From NCBI GenBank assembly GCA_037443685.1, contig JBBINX010000007.1:1-54813 (forward strand): a DNA stretch of 54,813 nt. Reading direction: 5' to 3'. This document shows, in pieces, positions 2,730 through 34,503 of the stretch. This stretch comes from Ignavibacteriales bacterium (lineage in GTDB: Bacteria; Bacteroidota; Ignavibacteria; UBA10030; BY39). The notes below the pieces were generated by a model. That model had not been told where the DNA came from. It did not search any database and was given only the letters and a program-made list of their open reading frames with translations. The position numbers were made by a program, and so were the translations under genes. Position 1 is the first letter of the stretch; every line of letters begins with the position of its first letter.

Positions 2730-4388
2730 ATGAAGAACATCCCAAATACTATTTTACTATTTACATTTTTATTAGTTCCACTTCAAAGCTTTTCTCAAGT
2801 CGAAGCTGCAATGTACTATCTAAACTTCCCACGTTCAGTTGCATCTATTGGACTGGGAGAACAGGGCGTTGCATCGCGAAATAATTTGGACGCCTTAAAT
2901 TTTAATCCAGCTAACTTGATATTTGCTAAAAATATACAGGGATCATTTTTCCGGAATCCATTCTACATGTATGGTTGGAATCTGCCATTTACATCTATTA
3001 ATTCTTCTTTTCAAATTCCTGAAATAGGATATTTTGGGGCGGAGTATCTAAATTGGGATTTGGGAAAATTTATTGTCACTTCTTCAGCGAGCCCAGAAAT
3101 TGTAAAAACAATTGAAGCATACGAACGCAGCTTCTCAATCGGTTTCGCTCGGAATATTTCAGATGAGCTTGCGGTTGGAATTCAAGCCAGGTACGCAAAA
3201 ACACGTCTCGCAATTTCATTCGATAAGTTTTTTATTAGCGGTGGTTTAAATTACGCTACTCAAATATTTAATAGACCGTTGGTTTTAGGTTTCTCACTGA
3301 CGAACTTTAGCACAGCAATAGAATTTAAAATTGAAAGTTTCACTAACTCCGACCCACCACCATCTGATATGAAGCTCGGTTTGAGTTTTACTCCAATTGA
3401 AAACCATTTTCATTCAATAAATTTTCAATTTGAATTATCAAAGTATATTGTCGAGCGGGAAGGATTTAAAGGACAATCAGCTTTTAAATCTCTGTTCACA
3501 GATTGGCAGGATTTTCCCGAAGATGTTACGGTTCATACAGGTTTAGCTTTTAGCTGGCAGCCTTTAGACCTTGGCAATAACTTCTCGTTCTTTCAGGAAT
3601 TTTATTTTGGAAACATTTCTTCAGGTCCCAAATCAGGTATTGCTAATTTCTTCACGCACGGCGCTGTTATTGGATTGAAATATAATGGTGTATCTATTTT
3701 AACTGGATATACTGGGTGGTGGCACAATGTTCATTCTACCAATTATTATTTCCCACAAAAACTACCAAGAGAAACTTTTCAGTTTAATATTGGAGTTGAT
3801 CAGGCAATGATTTTCAGCAGTATTGAAAAAACTACGCTTGCTAAAAAATTAGAAAAAATAATTCTATCTACAGGTCCTAATTATACCTTCAGAATCGGTA
3901 GATCAAAAGCAGAGAGTTTTGCTCATTTGGGTTTAAAATTAAAAAACAGCTTGTGTTATTCTATCGAGACAGATTTTTATGTAGATGAAAACAACGCATT
4001 GATTTCAAATTTTTCATATCAATCAGTTCCTATCGATATATCCATCGGGTACTACAACCCTCCTTGGACTTATGCTAGTAATATTGAAACATTTTTGTTC
4101 TCGTCTTTATATCGCTTCCATCCTTTGGAAACATTCCAACCGCTCTTTATTCAAGGTGGTTTAGGAATAATAAGAGCAAACCCTGTCATGTTAACCTATC
4201 CGAAATACGATTACAGAACATATTTAACCGCTGGTGTAGGAGCTTTAGTTGAATTATCGGAAAATATTTATTTGAAACCGGGGCTTAACTTCACATCAAT
4301 TTTTAGCAAGGTTAGCGGAGCGTCACCTCGTTTAGGCGGTTATAACCAGTTTGATGTTACTATTAAGGGGGGGTATAAGATAAAATAA
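2730..4388 (+). CDS. PorV/PorQ-like outer-membrane beta-barrel with an extra C-terminal OMP barrel domain
   Basis: Signal peptide; N-terminal 'YLNFPRSVASIGLGEQGVA...ALNFNPANL' resembles the PorV-family 'FL.I.P.AR..GMG......NPA' motif; alternating aromatic beta-strands. Confidence 0.6.
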   Translation: MKNIPNTILLFTFLLVPLQSFSQVEAAMYYLNFPRSVASIGLGEQGVASRNNLDALNFNPANLIFAKNIQGSFFRNPFYMYGWNLPFTSINSSFQIPEIGYFGAEYLNWDLGKFIVTSSASPEIVKTIEAYERSFSIGFARNISDELAVGIQARYAKTRLAISFDKFFISGGLNYATQIFNRPLVLGFSLTNFSTAIEFKIESFTNSDPPPSDMKLGLSFTPIENHFHSINFQFELSKYIVEREGFKGQSAFKSLFTDWQDFPEDVTVHTGLAFSWQPLDLGNNFSFFQEFYFGNISSGPKSGIANFFTHGAVIGLKYNGVSILTGYTGWWHNVHSTNYYFPQKLPRETFQFNIGVDQAMIFSSIEKTTLAKKLEKIILSTGPNYTFRIGRSKAESFAHLGLKLKNSLCYSIETDFYVDENNALISNFSYQSVPIDISIGYYNPPWTYASNIETFLFSSLYRFHPLETFQPLFIQGGLGIIRANPVMLTYPKYDYRTYLTAGVGALVELSENIYLKPGLNFTSIFSKVSGASPRLGGYNQFDVTIKGGYKIK

Positions 4389-26434: not shown

Positions 26435-26536
26435 GTTGGAATAAAATAAAATAATTTAAGAATATTTCCAAAATGTTGGAATTCTTGATTTTTATTGTAA
26501 TACTTCAGATATTTTAACATTATGAGGGTTATTGCT

Positions 26537-27034
26537 ATGAAAAAGATTATCATTACACTATTAATCATATCTATTGCAGGGTGCAGTTCGCAGAAGCCTG
26601 TATTTAAAAACGAGGATAAAGTTGTACAGGATACGGTAAAAGTTGAGCGAGCAGTTCTGCAACCAACTTTGAACGCGTCGACAGCAATCAAAGAAAACAG
26701 CACACTCGTTGCAGCCGTTGTTGACTCGGTTGAATCGTTAGACAGCATAGGATATAAAATCATAGCACGGCTGCAGACTGCTATCCCGGCGTTGTCACAC
26801 GAAAGCATACTTGAGCCAGGACAAACCATCACAATTTATCCTGCTTTTATACTGAACGAAAATAAAGAAATAGATGCTGGAAATCTTACCAACAACAAAC
26901 TTATAGAATTAAGGACGATAAAACGAAAAGGATATTTTATCGGCAATGTCAGTTTAGCGGCTGATAATAAATATTACATCACGGCGGTAGAAGTGTTTTC
27001 GAATCCTCCTGAAGAGATTAATAATGAATTTTAA
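26537..27034 (+). CDS. Hypothetical lipoprotein
   Basis: MKK + hydrophobic stretch + lipobox IAG-C; overlaps the next gene. Confidence 0.7.
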   Translation: MKKIIITLLIISIAGCSSQKPVFKNEDKVVQDTVKVERAVLQPTLNASTAIKENSTLVAAVVDSVESLDSIGYKIIARLQTAIPALSHESILEPGQTITIYPAFILNENKEIDAGNLTNNKLIELRTIKRKGYFIGNVSLAADNKYYITAVEVFSNPPEEINNEF

Positions 27035-30029
27035 AAAAATAAATATATTTATATTTTCCCTGGTTTTCTTAGCCTCGTTACTTATAAATTTAGACGAGAA
27101 AAAAAACAGTGGCATCTATTCAAACAACCCATCATATTACAGGTCAACTAATCGAATAAAAGCGGGAAAGCCAAAAGCGGATAAACCCGGCGAAGCAGTA
27201 AAATGGATGTTCGAGCAGAGGGCATATCCCACCAAGGGCATACCAACAGACTGGAGAAATCGCGCACTTACACACATAAATAATAATAATCTATTAAAGG
27301 ATTCAAAAACCGCTATAAATTGGACGGCAGTCGGTCCGTATAATATCGGTGGAAGGGTTCGTGCGATTGCAATATCTAACCAGAATCCTGATTTAATCTA
27401 TGCAAGCTCAGTTAGTGGTGGCATTTTTAAATCGACTAATGGCGGATCATCATGGGTACCAATAAGTGATTATGCGTCTAACCTTGCAATTTCTTCGATA
27501 GTAATCGACCCTAATAACAATAATATTATTTATGCAGGTACGGGAGAAGGCTTTTTCAACTACGACGCTGTACGCGGCGAGGGGATTTTGAAAACTAATG
27601 ACGGAGGTATTACTTGGAGTCTTCAGAAAAATTTTTCGGGTACAACTGAGTTTCCATACTTCATCAACGATTTATATTTGCGTCCCGATAGCACTAATAT
27701 TCTATACGCTGCCACAAACAACGGACTTTTTAGAACGACTAATTCAGGAAATAATTGGAGCTTCATTCATCAGGGTTCTTTCTCCATCCGAGCCACTCAA
27801 GTAGTTGGCGACCCCTTAACCCCGGCTACTTTTTATATATGCTATGGCAATCATACCCAAGATGGAATTTATAAAACTATAAATGGGGGTAAAACTTTTA
27901 CAAAATTATCCAGCGGTTTTCCAACTGCAGGATATAATCGAATTGCATTAGCTGTTTCGAAAAGCAATCCTAATATTTTATTTGCTTCTTTGGATTCTGC
28001 ATCAACACATTTTACACACAGCATTCAAAAATCCACAGACGGCGGTATAACTTGGACAGCAGTCGCTAAACCAATTGATCTAATGTTAGGCGGTTCACAT
28101 TTAGGCGGACAAGGTTGGTATAACAACGTTATAGCTGTACATCCTACTAATCAGAATTTGGTGTTTGCTGGTGGAGTTAATCTTTTTAAATCAACTAACG
28201 GAGGTGCCAGTTGGTCGATGAGTACTTATGGTTATCCGCCCTCAGCATATCCTTACGTCCATGTCGATCATCATGAAATAAAATTTCACCCCACCGATCC
28301 TGCTATTATATATTTTGGAACTGACGGCGGAATATTTAAAACAACGAATACAGGTACTACTTTTATTGAATTAAACAACGGATTTGAAACTACACAATTT
28401 TATAGCGGTGCGGTACATCCTACCTCCGATATTTATTACGGTGGAACACAAGACAACGGAACATTGAAATCGAATACTCTTCCAAACTGGTCGATGGTGT
28501 TTGGCGGTGATGGCGGTGCAACGGCAGTCGATTTCAATTCACCGAATATTGTTTACACTGAATATATAAATCTACATATTAGGAAATCCACAAATTCGGG
28601 AACAACTTGGTTAAGAGCAATGGCAGGCATTCCCGCAGGAACGGGAGAGTATGACGGGACTACTGACAGAGTTTTATTCATCGCACCTTTTGTTATGGAT
28701 CCGACTAATTCTTCTATACTTGTTGCTGGAACATACAAACTTTATAGAACTACTAATTCAGCAGTATCTTGGATAAGCATGAGTAATGATTTGACTGGAG
28801 ACGGAACTGGTGCAATCGGTTCAAAAATTTCTGCAATTGCTATTTCAAAAACATCTTCTTCAACGATTTATGTAGGAACTACGGGCAGCAGCACTTCGGC
28901 TTCGAGAGTTGTGGTTACAACAAATACGGGTGTGAGCTGGGCTACAATTAGCAAACCACCTCTTCCTAATCGTTATGTAACGAGTTTAGCCATTCACGAG
29001 AATAATTCTGATGTTGTTTGGGTTGGCTTCTCGGGCTACAACACTAACACAACGACAACACCAGGTCATATTTTTAAGAGTACAAATAGAGGGTCTTCTT
29101 GGACTGACGTAAGCGGCAACCTTCCAGATATTCCTATCAATACAATTATAGTCAACCCAAACTATGAGAAGAATATCTTGATTGGAACCGACCTTGGGAT
29201 TTTTGAAACTAATGATGGTGGAACGGTTTGGACCCAACAAAACTATGGAATGGCGAATGTAGTTGTTGCCGACCTAGACTTGCGCAGCGATTATTTTGTG
29301 TTTGCTGCAACGCACGGGAGAGGTATGTTTAAAGCGCGGCTAACAGTTTTTGCACCGAATGATACAATCTATCCGGGTGATACAAACAACGATGGCATCG
29401 TCGATGCGAGGGATATACTTCCGATTGCGCAATATTACGGGAACACCGGATATCCGCGTATTAATCCGTCGCTCAATTGGTCGCCCCAACAACTTAGTGG
29501 ACCATTTTCTCCGATACAAGCCGCATACGCTGATTGTAATGGTAACGGTACTGTTCAAGCAACTGATGTTCAGGCAATTATTCAAAATTGGTTTTTCACT
29601 CGCAACCCCATTTCTATGCAACCAACCAATCGTGTAACTACTTGTGAAGAACTACTAAATTCAATTGGAACGCATCCAACTTCCAGTCCGATGAAAGAAA
29701 TTCGAAGTGAAATTATCCGTTACAGGTCTGAATTACTCAACGTCCCAAACGAATGGAAATTAGACCAGAACTATCCAAATCCATTTAACTCGAGTACAAA
29801 GATAAGATTTAACACACCAGAAGAAGTTACATCGGTCAAACTAATTATCTACGATATAACAGGAAAGTTGATAAAGGAAATGGGTAAGACCAATGTCCTT
29901 CCAGGATATAATTATTTTGAATGGGATTCGACAAACGATAGCGGCCTCCCCGTTTCGAGCGGTGTTTTTTATTATACTCTGACTTCAGATAAAATCCGAC
30001 TCTCAAAAAAAATGATTTTAATTCGATAA
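27024..30029 (+). CDS. T9SS-secreted BNR/Asp-box (VPS10/GH74-like) beta-propeller protein with dockerin-like domain
   Basis: Many 'FKSTNGG..W' Asp-box repeats, 'HVDHH', 'ATHGRG'; paired Ca loops 'GDTNNDGIVDARD' / 'ADCNGNGTVQATD'; CTD 'LDQNYPNPFN...IYDITG...SSGVFYY...KKMILIR'. Confidence 0.85.
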   Translation: MNFKKINIFIFSLVFLASLLINLDEKKNSGIYSNNPSYYRSTNRIKAGKPKADKPGEAVKWMFEQRAYPTKGIPTDWRNRALTHINNNNLLKDSKTAINWTAVGPYNIGGRVRAIAISNQNPDLIYASSVSGGIFKSTNGGSSWVPISDYASNLAISSIVIDPNNNNIIYAGTGEGFFNYDAVRGEGILKTNDGGITWSLQKNFSGTTEFPYFINDLYLRPDSTNILYAATNNGLFRTTNSGNNWSFIHQGSFSIRATQVVGDPLTPATFYICYGNHTQDGIYKTINGGKTFTKLSSGFPTAGYNRIALAVSKSNPNILFASLDSASTHFTHSIQKSTDGGITWTAVAKPIDLMLGGSHLGGQGWYNNVIAVHPTNQNLVFAGGVNLFKSTNGGASWSMSTYGYPPSAYPYVHVDHHEIKFHPTDPAIIYFGTDGGIFKTTNTGTTFIELNNGFETTQFYSGAVHPTSDIYYGGTQDNGTLKSNTLPNWSMVFGGDGGATAVDFNSPNIVYTEYINLHIRKSTNSGTTWLRAMAGIPAGTGEYDGTTDRVLFIAPFVMDPTNSSILVAGTYKLYRTTNSAVSWISMSNDLTGDGTGAIGSKISAIAISKTSSSTIYVGTTGSSTSASRVVVTTNTGVSWATISKPPLPNRYVTSLAIHENNSDVVWVGFSGYNTNTTTTPGHIFKSTNRGSSWTDVSGNLPDIPINTIIVNPNYEKNILIGTDLGIFETNDGGTVWTQQNYGMANVVVADLDLRSDYFVFAATHGRGMFKARLTVFAPNDTIYPGDTNNDGIVDARDILPIAQYYGNTGYPRINPSLNWSPQQLSGPFSPIQAAYADCNGNGTVQATDVQAIIQNWFFTRNPISMQPTNRVTTCEELLNSIGTHPTSSPMKEIRSEIIRYRSELLNVPNEWKLDQNYPNPFNSSTKIRFNTPEEVTSVKLIIYDITGKLIKEMGKTNVLPGYNYFEWDSTNDSGLPVSSGVFYYTLTSDKIRLSKKMILIR

Positions 30030-30041
30030 GGACGATGGTTA

Positions 30042-30605
30042 ATGAAGAAAACTATATTCTTAATAATATTATTACTATCCGTTGTTTTTTCTAATGGATG
30101 CAAAAAAGATCTCGTTAGTCCGCCACCAACCGTTGAAGATTTTTCATTTCCTCCGAGTACAAAGTTTGCAATTACAATTTACAGCTCTCAAACCGTTATC
30201 AATAAAGGAGATAACATCGATATCAGATTAGTATTTTACAATGTACAAAGTCTGTTCGGGACGGCGATAGAGTTAAACTACCCGAACAATTTGATTGAGT
30301 TCACGGATGACTCTAAGATGCTTTTAGGGCAGTTCTTTCAAATAAGAGATTCAACTTTGGTATTAAAGAAAGTCGAACAACTACAAGGGCGGGCAAGCGT
30401 TGGAATATCATACATTAAGGGAAGTGGATTGACTGCTAACGGCAGCGGCGTAGTTTTTAAGCTTAAGGGACGGGCTATCGCTGCAGGTGTTGCGCAGATT
30501 GATATCAATAAAAATAAATTGCAGATGTTAAGAAACGACGGCACATCGATTAATAATTTCTCAGACATTCTCATCGAAAATTTAACGCTTAATATCCAGT
30601 TTTGA
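30042..30605 (+). CDS. Cohesin-like domain lipoprotein
   Basis: Lipobox SNG-C; 'GDNIDIRL..YNVQSLFG....LNYP...IEF' and 'NGSGVVFKL..RAIAAG...I' follow the cohesin beta-sandwich pattern. Confidence 0.7.
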   Translation: MKKTIFLIILLLSVVFSNGCKKDLVSPPPTVEDFSFPPSTKFAITIYSSQTVINKGDNIDIRLVFYNVQSLFGTAIELNYPNNLIEFTDDSKMLLGQFFQIRDSTLVLKKVEQLQGRASVGISYIKGSGLTANGSGVVFKLKGRAIAAGVAQIDINKNKLQMLRNDGTSINNFSDILIENLTLNIQF

Positions 30606-30681: not shown

Positions 30682-32307
30682 ATGCCTCGGTTAGATACGC
30701 TGTTTTTGTTTGTAATTTTTATTGCACTTGTACTTTCTTCTTGTTCTAAAAGAGAAACCGCTATTACAACAAAAGATCAGTTATACATTTATCTTGATAC
30801 GCTTGAGCTTAAATATGAGGAAGCGTGTATCGCAACTGGCATTGCCAATTGGAATTTATACTCAAGAGATGGAAAATCAAACCTCAATGCAGTAAAGAAA
30901 AAATTCGCTGCAATTTTTTTAGATACACTTAACCGGAAAATAATTGAAGAGTGGCGCGCTAAATCGGGGTCGCTTGCCGACGAGATGCTGACTCGTCGCC
31001 TCGAACTTTGGTCGCGTACGTTCATAGGAGGAATTGTTTATTCCGATTCGCAAATATCGGTTCTCGAAAACAGCTTACAGGAACGGATTACTAATTTTAA
31101 TTTCCGGTTTGAAAGCCAAAATATCACTTTAGCTGATTTATCCAATCGGCTGAAAACCGAAAACAGCGAAAAACAGCGGCGTAAACTTTGGCTTACAACA
31201 AGTCAGTTATCGGGAAAGGCAGCAGACGATTTAATTAAGCTTGTAAAGCTGCGAAACGAAAAAGCTGTTTCTCTTGGCTTTTATAACTACTATTCTCTCT
31301 CGCTTTATCTTCAAAGTATCAGGGAAGATTGGTTGCTCACAATTTTAAATGAGTTAGAAGAGAAAACAAGGAATAAGTTTAAAGAATTCATCGAATCCTC
31401 AAAAAAGAAATTGAAGATAAAAAAGTTTCACGCTTGGGATTTTGACGCAGCTCTTTACAGATGGGCAACTATCTCAGATAATAATTTTCCAAAAGATTCG
31501 GTCTTAAATATCCTCCACCGCTTTCACCGTAACATCGGTTTCGAAGTTGACTCGCTTCCTATAAAAGAAATTATTAGAGATATTCCTTTTGGTGGTATAA
31601 ATGTTGGCATTCAAATACCCAAAGATTCCCGCCTGATAATCAATCCAATAAACGGTAAATGGTTTTATAACCGTGCGTTTCATGAATACGGCCACGCACT
31701 GCAAGTCGTACACACAAAAGTAAATTATCCCATATTGAAAGGTTACGAATGGATTCCTGGAGCATCAAGCGGTGCGTATTCCGAGGGTGTTGCGGAACTG
31801 CAAGCTGAATTCATTGACGATTATGAATGGTTAAAGACTTTTACAAATGCGTCGCAGGACGAAATCGAAAGATACATCGCAAGTAAAACATTTTCCGACT
31901 TATACTACTTACGCAGTACGCTAAAAGATTTCTTCTTTGAGTATGAGATGTATAAGAATCCGGAAAGAGATTTAGCAGAGGTGGAAAGGGAAATGTATTT
32001 TAAATATTTACTCGTCGAATTAGACGAAGGTACTCCGCACAGGTTTGCATCATCAATTTTGTACACGATATATCCGTGCTACTTTCAGAATTATGTTTTA
32101 TCGCACCTGATAGCTACACAGGTTTTCGAAGTGTTGGTGAACAAGTTTGGTGCTAATAGAATTTCGGATTCAAACGTTAGCAAATGGATTATCTCACATT
32201 TCTATGAAAAAGGGGAAACTGAAGATTGGCCCAAAAGGATCCGAGGTGCTTCCGGAAAATCGCTCGAAACAGGTGCGTATTTACGAAAATTAAAAATTAT
32301 GGATTAA
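30682..32307 (+). CDS. Gluzincin metallopeptidase (M3/M2-like), lipoprotein
   Basis: HEYGH, downstream 'SEG.AE', 'YP.YFQNY', 'LRNEKA..LGF.NYY'; lipobox LSS-C. Confidence 0.8.
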   Translation: MPRLDTLFLFVIFIALVLSSCSKRETAITTKDQLYIYLDTLELKYEEACIATGIANWNLYSRDGKSNLNAVKKKFAAIFLDTLNRKIIEEWRAKSGSLADEMLTRRLELWSRTFIGGIVYSDSQISVLENSLQERITNFNFRFESQNITLADLSNRLKTENSEKQRRKLWLTTSQLSGKAADDLIKLVKLRNEKAVSLGFYNYYSLSLYLQSIREDWLLTILNELEEKTRNKFKEFIESSKKKLKIKKFHAWDFDAALYRWATISDNNFPKDSVLNILHRFHRNIGFEVDSLPIKEIIRDIPFGGINVGIQIPKDSRLIINPINGKWFYNRAFHEYGHALQVVHTKVNYPILKGYEWIPGASSGAYSEGVAELQAEFIDDYEWLKTFTNASQDEIERYIASKTFSDLYYLRSTLKDFFFEYEMYKNPERDLAEVEREMYFKYLLVELDEGTPHRFASSILYTIYPCYFQNYVLSHLIATQVFEVLVNKFGANRISDSNVSKWIISHFYEKGETEDWPKRIRGASGKSLETGAYLRKLKIMD

Positions 32308-32316
32308 TTTTTAGTT

Positions 32317-34503
32317 ATGATAAAAAAATATTCATCCGATTTTTATAATAGAATAATTGATATGGCCGACGAGTTAATTTTCCAAACAGACTACGATGGA
32401 AAATTTCTCTTCGTAAATCCGGCGACTCTGAAAACTACTGGCTACAATAGCGAAGAACTTTTTAGAACAATATTATTCAAACTTATCCCTCCCGAATATT
32501 CAAATACTGTCAAAGAATTTTTTTCCAATCAAATCAAAAATAAAATCGAAAAAACCTATTTCGAATTTCCCATAACTTGTAAATCGGGCAGAGTAATCTG
32601 GTTGGGACAAAGCACCGTGTGGGCGGAGGATGTTGCCGAGCTAAAAGGATTGCAGTGTATTGCGCGCGACATTACTCCGCGCAAGCTTGTTGAACAAGAA
32701 ACTTTAATGCTTGCGAAAATATTAGAGCAAACCACAGAGATGATTCTGATAACCGATAAGAAGGGTATAGTACAATATGTTAATTCTGCATTCGAGAAAA
32801 TTACGCAGTACACGAAATGGGAAATTATAGGTAAAAGAGTTGACGTATTGAGAACCGATGAAGAAACCCAACAATACATCGACGAAGCTTGGGGGAAAGT
32901 TCTTAACGGACAGGTTTGGCGCGGGATTATTAAGAACCGAAAAAAAGACGGCACTGTTTACGATGAAGAACTGACAATCAATCCGGTATTCAACGAATTC
33001 GGAGTCATCATAAATATTGTTGAGATTAAAAGAGATATATCCGAAGAAATAAAACAAAAAGATGCTTTAAGTAAAGCTGAAGAAAGGTTTAAAAGTCTAT
33101 TCGAAAATGCTATCGAAGGAATATACCAATCTTCTGTTGACGGTAAATTGCTCATGGCAAACCGGGCTCTTTTAGAGATGTTGGGATACGAGAGCATCGA
33201 CGAGTTAGAATCGAAAGACCTCGCTGATATTTATGTTAACCCCGAGGATCGCGCTGCTTTTCAGAAGATTATGGATAAGGACGGCAAAGTTATCGATTAC
33301 GAGATAAAGTTGAAGCGCAAAGATGGATTCGAAATATTCGTGCTCGAAAATTCACGTGCAGTTACTGATAACAAGGGGAATATAATATACTACGAAGGCA
33401 TTATACAGGATATTACCAAAAGGAAGGAAACAGAAAATGCCATAAGGAAACTGATCGCTCAGAAAGATAAATTCCTTTCGATTGTATCACACGACCTACG
33501 TGCGCCGTTCAACAGCATACTCGGTTTTACCGAAATTCTATTGGATGAAACTTCAGAGTTTAATACCGAAGAGAAAAAAGAGTTCCTCGTGTTTATTAAA
33601 CAAGCTGCTGAGCAGCAACTTAATCTGCTCGGTAACTTATTAGATTGGTCACGCATCGAAACGGGCAGGATCCGTTTCGAACCGAAACCAACCGACTTAA
33701 AAATGTTGGTTGAGAAATCTATTATTTCGTTAAAGGGAAACGCACTCAGGAAGCAAATTAACTTGTATTCAAACATCCAAGAAAATATTACGGTTAACAT
33801 TGACGAAAATTTAACACTTCAACTCTTCGGTAATTTATTATCGAACGCACTAAAATTTACACCTCAGAATGGCAGCGTGTGGGTTGATATTAATGACTCA
33901 CGAGTCGATTTCGTAAGTGTATCAGTAAACGACAATGGAATTGGCATCCCACATGAAGATTTTGATAAATTGTTTAGAATCGATACGAAATACTATTCGC
34001 GGGGAACCGAGGGCGAAGAAGGGTCGGGATTAGGACTTGCGCTCTGTGCAGAAATCGTTAAAAAACACGGCGGTAAAATCGAGGTAAAAAGTGAACTCAA
34101 CAAAGGTACTTCTTTCATTTTTAATTTACCGGCTGTTCGTAAATCTGTTCTTATCGTTGACGACAACAAAGGCGACCGCTCTTTAGCGATGCTCTACGTC
34201 CAACAATTATATCCTGATATTATCGTAATTGAAGCTCATAACGGTTACGAAGCGATGTCGTTAACAATGTCGCGCATCCCGTCGATCGTTCTTGCCGACT
34301 TTGCCATGCCTGGAATGGACGGTTTACGACTATTACAGGAATTAAAACAACAGCCACAAACTCGAAACATACCGGTAATAATAATTACTTCGTTCGAATC
34401 GAAAGCCGATGCAGTCTCGTTAACAGAGTATGGCGTAACAGAAATTTTAATTAAACCCATTGCTAAAGAAGAGTTACAACAAGTATTAGCCAAATATATA
34501 TGA
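32317..34503 (+). CDS. Cytoplasmic hybrid histidine kinase (3 PAS + HisKA + HATPase + receiver)
   Basis: PAC ends 'RDIT', 'RDIS', 'QDIT'; H-box 'SHDLRAP'; N-box 'NLLSNALKF'; G-boxes; REC 'VDD...LADFAMPGMDG...KP'. Confidence 0.92.
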   Translation: MIKKYSSDFYNRIIDMADELIFQTDYDGKFLFVNPATLKTTGYNSEELFRTILFKLIPPEYSNTVKEFFSNQIKNKIEKTYFEFPITCKSGRVIWLGQSTVWAEDVAELKGLQCIARDITPRKLVEQETLMLAKILEQTTEMILITDKKGIVQYVNSAFEKITQYTKWEIIGKRVDVLRTDEETQQYIDEAWGKVLNGQVWRGIIKNRKKDGTVYDEELTINPVFNEFGVIINIVEIKRDISEEIKQKDALSKAEERFKSLFENAIEGIYQSSVDGKLLMANRALLEMLGYESIDELESKDLADIYVNPEDRAAFQKIMDKDGKVIDYEIKLKRKDGFEIFVLENSRAVTDNKGNIIYYEGIIQDITKRKETENAIRKLIAQKDKFLSIVSHDLRAPFNSILGFTEILLDETSEFNTEEKKEFLVFIKQAAEQQLNLLGNLLDWSRIETGRIRFEPKPTDLKMLVEKSIISLKGNALRKQINLYSNIQENITVNIDENLTLQLFGNLLSNALKFTPQNGSVWVDINDSRVDFVSVSVNDNGIGIPHEDFDKLFRIDTKYYSRGTEGEEGSGLGLALCAEIVKKHGGKIEVKSELNKGTSFIFNLPAVRKSVLIVDDNKGDRSLAMLYVQQLYPDIIVIEAHNGYEAMSLTMSRIPSIVLADFAMPGMDGLRLLQELKQQPQTRNIPVIIITSFESKADAVSLTEYGVTEILIKPIAKEELQQVLAKYI

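Follow-up and report, generated by a model that had tools for sequence, protein, structure and literature searches.

In a 54,813-nt stretch of contig JBBINX010000007.1 from an uncultured Ignavibacteriales bacterium (the window, whose positions give all coordinates below unless another contig is named), we identified neighbouring genes for a dockerin-bearing type IX secretion system (T9SS) cargo and for a small lipoprotein with a predicted cohesin fold. We consider it probable, though well short of certain, that the two form a cognate, non-cellulosomal cohesin–dockerin pair, encoded as a two-gene cassette, that retains T9SS cargo at the cell envelope. The cargo would be exported by Sec and then by T9SS by means of its C-terminal sorting domain (CTD), and removal of the CTD would make a Ca-binding dockerin and a conserved linker the new C-terminus. 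The dockerin would then plug into the one cohesin of the lipoprotein whose gene lies 12 bp downstream. That lipoprotein would be fixed in the outer membrane through its lipid and a short tether rich in Pro, leaving the secreted cargo retained non-covalently at the envelope, most likely on its outer face. Binding of the pair is judged more likely than this mechanism as a whole.

ORF translation gave three open reading frames (ORFs) on the plus strand, at 26522/26537–27034 (170/165 aa), 27024–30029 (1001 aa) and 30042–30605 (187 aa). The preliminary description of this DNA had called them tightly linked and had placed the start of the third 12 bp downstream of the large gene; both statements held, as the 3′ end of the first gene (lipoA) overlaps the start of the second by 11 bp and the 187-aa frame begins 12 bp past the stop of the 1001-aa frame. 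The features of the locus are as follows.

26537–27034 (+), lipoA, lipoprotein with a predicted OB-fold domain (ORF; alternative start at 26522)
27024–30029 (+), cargo gene, 1001-aa predicted secreted protein with N-terminal signal peptide, Asp-box double propeller, dockerin, linker and T9SS CTD (Pfam, NCBIfam)
27306–29333 (+), Asp-box/BNR beta-propeller, GH74-like and Sortilin-Vps10-like, about residues 95–770 (Sortilin-Vps10 and PSII_BNR matches)
29373–29585 (+), dockerin module, residues 784–854 (Pfam Dockerin_1)
29586–29771 (+), conserved dockerin–CTD linker, residues 855–916 (invariant columns, tblastn)
29772–30029 (+), T9SS type A C-terminal sorting domain, residues 917–1001 and stop codon (TIGR04183)
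30042–30605 (+), predicted cohesin lipoprotein, 187 aa, with signal peptide, lipobox, Pro-rich tether and single cohesin (AlphaFold2, Foldseek, family profile)
30099–30101 (+), lipobox Cys20 of the cohesin lipoprotein (conserved in homologs)
30168–30602 (+), cohesin beta-sandwich, about residues 43–187 of the 187-aa lipoprotein (predicted fold)

The cargo protein carries, as had been claimed, a duplicated Ca-binding dockerin-like module just before a T9SS CTD. Residues 784–854, at the position given in that description, match Pfam Dockerin_1 (PF00404); the score is 38.4 bits, with the cut-off at 22.9, and 43.4 bits when the genome was scanned. The module consists of two 12-residue Ca loops of the form D-x-N-x-[DN]-G-...-D with their helices, and both loops, DTNNDGIVDARD and DCNGNGTVQATD, are present in the translation. 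An unusually long insert splits the repeats, giving 71 residues over 54 model positions (about 17 residues extra), and the loop residues D786, N788, D790, D797, D837, G840, G842 and D848 are invariant in nine orthologs. Scanning the window assembly returned exactly one Dockerin_1 match and one paired-loop motif, both of them this module, and no other dockerin protein. Because the only dockerin of the assembly adjoins this predicted cohesin, their neighbourhood is not a matter of chance. Two cysteines, C838 inside the second Ca loop (29535–29537) and C874 in the linker motif CEEL (29643–29645), are invariant in all nine orthologs and may form a disulfide tying the linker to the dockerin.

The C-terminal tail matches TIGR04183 at 24.9 bits (NCBIfam cut-off 23) and Pfam FlgD_ig at 37.2 bits, and lies slightly below the threshold of Pfam Por_Secre_tail (PF18962; 25.7 against 27); with the CTD portion of the PorU model it gives E 6.7e-9. 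In the genome (2.13 Mb in 131 contigs, 94% complete), SprA scores 836 bits, PorU 958 bits and PorV, encoded next to PorU, 269 bits, each exceeding its cut-off, and about 30 ORFs match the CTD portion of the PorU model, the 1001-aa protein included. The cargo is accordingly classed by its sequence as T9SS type A, with export and CTD removal predicted. Its orthologs in eight relatives are 63–71% identical. The propeller matches Sortilin-Vps10 at E 1.2e-25 and also PSII_BNR (Pfam), and reaches 146 bits with the NCBIfam glycosylhydrolase model F510_1955, under the cut-off of 175. GH74 xyloglucanases in the PDB were retrieved at E 1.3e-11 with the single sequence and 4.4e-15 with a profile, with coverage mostly of the first ~100–300 residues. 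The propeller appears weakly related to GH74 and may be an enzyme or a binding protein.

The 187-aa lipoprotein had been described as essentially one cohesin-like beta-sandwich, and comparisons of sequence and predicted structure agree. Five close homologs came out of a word-indexed search, and three of them match Pfam Cohesin as single sequences (three of six in the closest set). When 1.84 billion cluster representatives were searched with a profile, 261 matched at E ≤ 0.001 and 64 at E ≤ 1e-10; many are proteins of about 185 aa, others are multi-domain proteins matched in several stretches. Pfam Cohesin (PF00963) is matched by 43 of 62 short homologs, with a best E of 2.6e-15. When the profile built from these 62 sequences was compared with the PDB, the 29 best matches were all cohesins, headed by ScaB (3l8q) at E 2.5e-9, and nothing else appeared down to E 0.08. 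AlphaFold2, given the 62-row alignment, returned a model with a mean predicted local distance difference test (pLDDT) of 96.0 and a predicted TM-score (pTM) of 0.83. Foldseek gave this model 108 matches in the PDB at E ≤ 0.001, and all the top matches listed are cohesins; the best was 2xdh (E 1.7e-9, TM-target 0.78, 20% identity). Among the listed matches, chains consisting of a single cohesin module gave TM-target values of 0.61–0.79, and identity to solved cohesins was 8–20%. We conclude that the predicted fold is that of a cohesin, contrary to the refuting condition that it would not be, and that the 187-aa lipoprotein is, on this modelling, a divergent member of the family. A Pro-rich tether of about 20 aa lies between its lipobox and the beta-sandwich.

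We then asked how far the gene pair is conserved, using a set of 277 genomes of the order in which f1 denotes the window's own family (11 genomes, including the window genome, G000). Within f1 the lipoprotein is single-copy in 10 of 11 genomes. All 10 carriers have Dockerin_1 in an ORF of ~1005–1028 aa directly upstream on the same strand (in G009 the ORF is cut by the contig end), and in several dockerin/cohesin gene pairs the stop of one gene overlaps the start of the next. Four relatives (G001–G004) have one dockerin each and zero canonical Pfam cohesins, so the adjacent lipoprotein is the sole cohesin candidate there. G005, of the same genus, has lost lipoA, the propeller and the cohesin gene together, whether by a joint deletion or through an artefact of assembly. 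What is left there between the flanking genes, which are conserved (L024, contig C209, 2997–4273), is a remnant of ~194 aa that corresponds to residues 769–962, comprising the dockerin, the linker and part of the CTD.

Across the order the lipoprotein occurs in 32 of 277 genomes: 10 in f1 (the window included), 14 of 68 in f2, 6 of 86 in f3, 1 of 3 in f34, 1 of 44 in f6 and 0 of 55 in f4. Dockerins of any kind occur in 183 of the 277. Breadth beyond the order rests on a class-wide sample of 401 genomes, where the lipoprotein family was found in eight, all inside this order; scans of metagenomes gave zero confirmed relatives. We compared the neighbourhoods of the 22 carriers outside f1, of which 21 are assessable for a dockerin (L048 is cut by the contig end). 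The directly upstream ORF has a T9SS-tail match at 21 of 22 loci, the exception being L038 with a truncated tail, and the adjacent upstream ORF matches Dockerin_1 at E ≤ 0.05 at 19 of the 21, always just before the CTD. Searching with residues 775–912 by tblastn recovered the dockerin–linker module at 31–50% identity at 21 of the 22 loci, in the adjacent gene at 20 of 21 assessable ones. Order-wide, the gene immediately upstream of the cohesin lipoprotein contains the module in 30 of 31 assessable carriers, and the gap between the two genes is −4 to +29 bp in most loci; the linkage that the preliminary description had made a condition of its proposal is thus kept in relatives. A second, partial lipoprotein-like match in G011 (L053), with no CTD/dockerin gene upstream, was left out of the counts.

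Long-insert dockerins in genomes without the lipoprotein were considered as counter-examples and set aside: one belongs to a fused ORF (G415), one is cut by the contig start (G508) and one is of an unrelated subtype (G438). The fused ORF (L054; G415, contig C217, 2294–5587, minus strand) encodes 1098 aa with two cohesin-like domains around a long-insert dockerin and a CTD-like C-terminus. By its domain order it is read as a fused form of the cassette parts, in a genome without the separate lipoprotein.

What precedes the dockerin varies between carriers. Of the 22 loci outside f1, 12 encode a cargo with a BNR-like N-terminal part and nine a cargo in which that part is unrelated (Big_1, FG-GAP, HYDIN-like immunoglobulin (Ig) and TIG matches), while one is unassigned; the dockerin–linker module thus travels across different cargos. 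Because the N-terminal cargo differs in this way, the unit is a two-gene cassette, made of a dockerin–linker–CTD tail and the cohesin lipoprotein, and because the cargo is variable the cassette is not specifically a device for anchoring hydrolases. This narrows what had been proposed for the locus. A secreted cargo with a GH74-like propeller is encoded here, where a secreted hydrolase or adhesin had been suggested, and the cargo is unrelated at nine loci. The pairing of cargo and cohesin lipoprotein within the supposed three-gene system was borne out, but lipoA is not part of the core: it is syntenic in all eight f1 relatives with full contigs and found at 0 of the 22 other loci, and is an f1-specific accessory.

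The lipoA product has a predicted lipid anchor at Cys16 of its 165-aa form, a disordered tether of ~35 aa and a domain modelled as an oligonucleotide/oligosaccharide-binding (OB) fold; mean pLDDT was 75.4, with core residues 55–157 above 90. It matched no Pfam family, and NCBIfam gave weak matches to the N-terminal signal region far under the cut-offs (E 0.009–0.075). Structure comparison returned generic OB-fold matches only, the best with Z 7.6, in the range of common arrangements, together with Foldseek matches at E ≥ 1.8e-3 and Atlas clusters of unnamed lipoproteins.

We modelled the complex of the mature cohesin with dockerin residues 775–910 and two Ca ions, alongside three controls. The interface score ipSAE was 0.88, 0.90 and 0.89, against 0.00 for the best control, with contact agreement of at least 85% and partner pLDDT of at least 76 across runs. 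In calibration, 116 of 157 solved complexes attained the ipSAE mark, as did 2 of 215 mismatched pairs; our job differed from the calibration in using its own alignments and a Ca ligand. Because solved cohesin–dockerin complexes exist, so that the pass may reflect memory of them, the pass indicates likeness rather than proof of binding by this copy. The modelled contacts on the dockerin, residues 794–807 and 846–856, correspond to the helix that follows each Ca loop (helices 1 and 3); those on the cohesin, residues 72–77, 106–110, 119–127 and 159–167, form one face of a sheet, which we take to be the canonical arrangement of such complexes. In the six closest homologs, 12 of the 24 residues through which the cohesin makes contact do not vary, compared with 37 of 144 other residues.

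We also tested whether the partners diverged together, using 28 pairs; L017, L040, L048 and L052 were left out because they lacked a part or had it at a non-adjacent position, and L053 because it is a partial paralog. Distances between cohesins correlated with those of the dockerin module at r = 0.872 and with those of the CTD at r = 0.774. The partial Mantel correlation of cohesin and dockerin given the CTD was 0.657, reached by 0 of 5000 permutations, and that of cohesin and CTD given the dockerin was 0.220, in a test made on related, non-independent genomes and with CTD distances that are noisier because the CTD is shorter. Divergence of the cohesin appears to track the dockerin more than the CTD, which we treat as supportive only.

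Alongside these limits on the complex model and the Mantel test, several results weigh against retention by the pair. The 187-aa lipoprotein alone matches no Pfam or NCBIfam family, so its cohesin-like nature is not obvious, and a shallow six-sequence profile, superseded by the 62-sequence one, retrieved from the PDB no cohesin, only farnesyl-pyrophosphate synthase at E of at least 0.54. Outside f1, seven of the 19 Dockerin_1 matches lie under the Pfam cut-off (12 lie above it). One genome, G524 (L040, contig C38, 1067–5051), has next to the lipoprotein a BNR-like ORF with a CTD and without a dockerin, and its dockerin–linker module lies ~3 kb upstream; a rearrangement, a second cargo gene in tandem or an error of assembly might explain this.

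The chief reservation concerns the orientation of the lipoprotein. At least 90% of the 62 homologs keep the lipobox residue Cys20. The window copy (30042–30101) has the non-canonical lipobox S-N-G-C, for which reason a standard lipobox regular expression misses it; orthologs have L-T-G-C, V-A-S-C or F-S-S-C. The 'CKKD' N-terminus remarked on earlier is present after the lipobox Cys, and C-K-K is invariant in the six closest homologs. A lipoprotein export signal C-X-K-(D/E)2-X has been defined in the Bacteroidota genera Capnocytophaga, Bacteroides and Flavobacterium (PMC5080379). C-K-K-D-L of the window copy matches this signal in part, with K at +3 and D at +4 and a mismatch at +5, and the signal is not one defined in Ignavibacteria. 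SusD, a possible calibrator of the export signal, has no homolog in the window genome, and a regular-expression census of that genome's lipoproteins (45 candidates, three with X-K-[DE]) missed the relaxed lipobox of the target and was discarded.

An inward-facing lipoprotein might accordingly bind in the periplasm, capturing the folded dockerin before T9SS export so as to escort it, hold it or check its quality. All the linkage and binding evidence fits this equally well, folding of T9SS cargo is held to take place in the periplasm ahead of export, and outer-membrane lipoproteins that have no complete export signal face inwards by default. Set against it, several members of the lipoprotein family show a full C-K-K-D-D or C-S-S-D-D from the Cys onwards, in agreement with the surface signal as published; a tight periplasmic tether on a protein bound for export has no known precedent; and a dockerin left at the membrane-proximal C-terminus after CTD removal suits an anchor that acts after export. 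We regard periplasmic capture as unlikely, although it deserves to be taken seriously, and outward exposure of the cohesin lipoprotein as a plausible prediction.

Another alternative is that the modules are no longer a binding pair, the dockerin serving as a Ca-stabilised structural element and the cohesin-fold lipoprotein binding carbohydrate or another ligand, with adjacency reflecting co-regulation. Modelled dockerin contact residues are variable (4 of 17 invariant in nine orthologs), which could mean weak constraint rather than co-evolution. Peer et al. (2009) reportedly found non-cellulosomal cohesin- and dockerin-like modules to be widespread and mostly uncharacterised. The loss of binding nevertheless sits poorly with adjacency kept across different cargos, with cohesin divergence that follows the dockerin more than the CTD, with a modelled interface that uses canonical elements at very low expected error and with the invariant Ca-loop residues, and we think it improbable.

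The dockerin might instead bind a scaffoldin-like protein encoded elsewhere, the adjacent lipoprotein binding something else. Contig C4 of the window genome encodes on the minus strand (62266–64302, or L002:1108–3144) a 678-aa secreted protein with three canonical cohesins and Ig-like stretches between them. Its cohesins are of Pfam grade (35.3, 22.3 and 23.3 bits) and could compete for the one detectable dockerin of the assembly, a further point that counts against the cassette, and its tail resembles a T9SS CTD by eye. Canonical cohesins occur, however, in 5 of 11 f1 genomes, compared with 11 of 11 for the cassette dockerin, and in G006, G007 and G010 the three-cohesin ORF adjoins an ORF of ~1550–1800 aa with its own canonical-length dockerin and cohesin. 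The equivalent neighbour position in the window genome lies past the contig end, 91 bp from the ORF start, and the cassette dockerin is of the long-insert subtype, spanning 213 bp per 54 model positions compared with 168–174 bp in others. The C4 protein looks like part of a second, separate scaffoldin-type system whose dockerin partner is probably unassembled in this genome, and a C4 partner for the cassette dockerin seems very unlikely indeed. We give equally little credence to an extreme variant of periplasmic capture, in which cohesin and dockerin come together in the periplasm and the lipoprotein anchor travels to the surface along with its cargo.

Retention at the envelope by the adjacent cohesin remains the reading that we favour. 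The preliminary description had proposed an alternative anchoring route, and the parts of that proposal concerning fold, linkage and modelled binding stood, none of the three tests run on them refuting it; the core, however, comprises two genes rather than three, and its cargo varies. We found no publication on this architecture in the full-text literature (supplements lay outside the scope), in line with the earlier remark that it was not known to have been characterised in this lineage. The label non-cellulosomal also proved apt: each cassette has one cohesin and one dockerin, the dockerin is single in the assembly, the cassette includes no multi-cohesin scaffoldin, and Pfam gave no carbohydrate-binding module (CBM) match in the cargo protein or the cohesin lipoprotein.

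The nearest parallels share parts of this arrangement. OlpA, OlpC and SdbA of the cellulosome producer Clostridium thermocellum (PDB 3ul4, 4dh2 and 2b59, all among the Foldseek matches) resemble it in that an envelope-fixed cohesin protein receives the dockerin of a secreted one, and cohesins of their type head the profile matches. Each has a single cohesin and is fixed to the Gram-positive wall by S-layer homology (SLH) modules. Their cargos leave by Sec alone, whereas here the predicted anchor is a diderm lipoprotein and the dockerin stands just before a T9SS sorting domain. The cohesin of Archaeoglobus fulgidus (2xdh), the best structural match, likewise lies outside a cellulosome but comes from an archaeon and lacks a lipid anchor or T9SS context. 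In Porphyromonas gingivalis, T9SS type A cargo is covalently anchored to anionic lipopolysaccharide (A-LPS) by the PorU/PorV/PorZ attachment complex. That route too keeps CTD-bearing cargo at the surface after CTD removal, and homologs of PorU and PorV are present in the window genome; it makes a covalent glycolipid link, whereas the cassette would provide a non-covalent protein–protein plug encoded beside the cargo.

Closer in lineage, an account of the Cloacimonadota member 'Ca. Stygibacter' infers a cellulosome-like complex from genomes only (PMC8542988). This too is a diderm of the Fibrobacterota–Chlorobiota–Bacteroidota (FCB) group that combines cohesin–dockerin pairing with a T9SS CTD for surface attachment. 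Its topology as given there is the opposite one, with the CTD on a 3755-aa multi-cohesin scaffoldin and the dockerins on enzymes, whereas in the window the CTD is on the dockerin cargo and the cohesin is a small lipoprotein, one cohesin to one dockerin. For Chlorobium chlorochromatii, in the related Chlorobiota, a preprint describes neighbouring complementary cohesin/dockerin genes, Cag_2037/Cag_2038, with an AlphaFold 3 model and proposed surface retention (bioRxiv 10.64898/2026.03.19.712371). The gene adjacency is alike; as described there, the cohesin is on a giant RTX protein with a proposed type I secretion route and the dockerin on a Big-repeat filament, with no lipoprotein and no T9SS tail on the dockerin protein. 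Rumen studies record dockerins in Bacteroidetes with roles undefined (PMC7480376; PMC6487960), and Bacteroidetes genomes have been stated to lack cohesins and dockerins (PMC5831590).

What is understood of the retention and release of T9SS cargo comes mainly from covalent attachment to A-LPS in a small number of cultured Bacteroidota. If the proposed mechanism is true, it would add a different, modular retention route and place cohesin–dockerin biology in diderm envelopes outside cellulose degradation. It would also offer a compact natural surface-display pair for T9SS hosts and give a function to ~185-aa 'hypothetical lipoproteins', of which the profile search counted 64 representatives at E ≤ 1e-10. 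More tentatively, and with slightly less than even confidence, we suggest that the dockerin–linker–CTD tail and cohesin lipoprotein form a portable, cargo-independent 'plug-and-socket' cassette, giving the FCB group a second, non-covalent and self-contained means of retaining T9SS cargo that is independent of A-LPS and swapped between unrelated cargos.

Promoter-like sites were at the level of shuffled sequence (14, compared with 14.5 in shuffles) in a scan whose promoter types exclude the Bacteroidota type. Two genes follow the cassette at 30682–34503. One encodes a 541-aa M3/M32-like metallopeptidase whose N-terminus is of lipoprotein type, the other a 728-aa PAS/histidine-kinase/receiver hybrid. 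Both the metallopeptidase and the kinase hybrid lie downstream of the cassette in every f1 relative, with ~2.4 kb inserted before the peptidase in G001 and G002; outside f1 the M3-like peptidase was found at 0 of 22 loci (the kinase was not searched for). At 2787–3704 (+), a 560-aa open frame gives a weak match to the PorV model (51.7 bits against a cut-off of 250) and probably encodes a PorV/PorP/FadL-like barrel.

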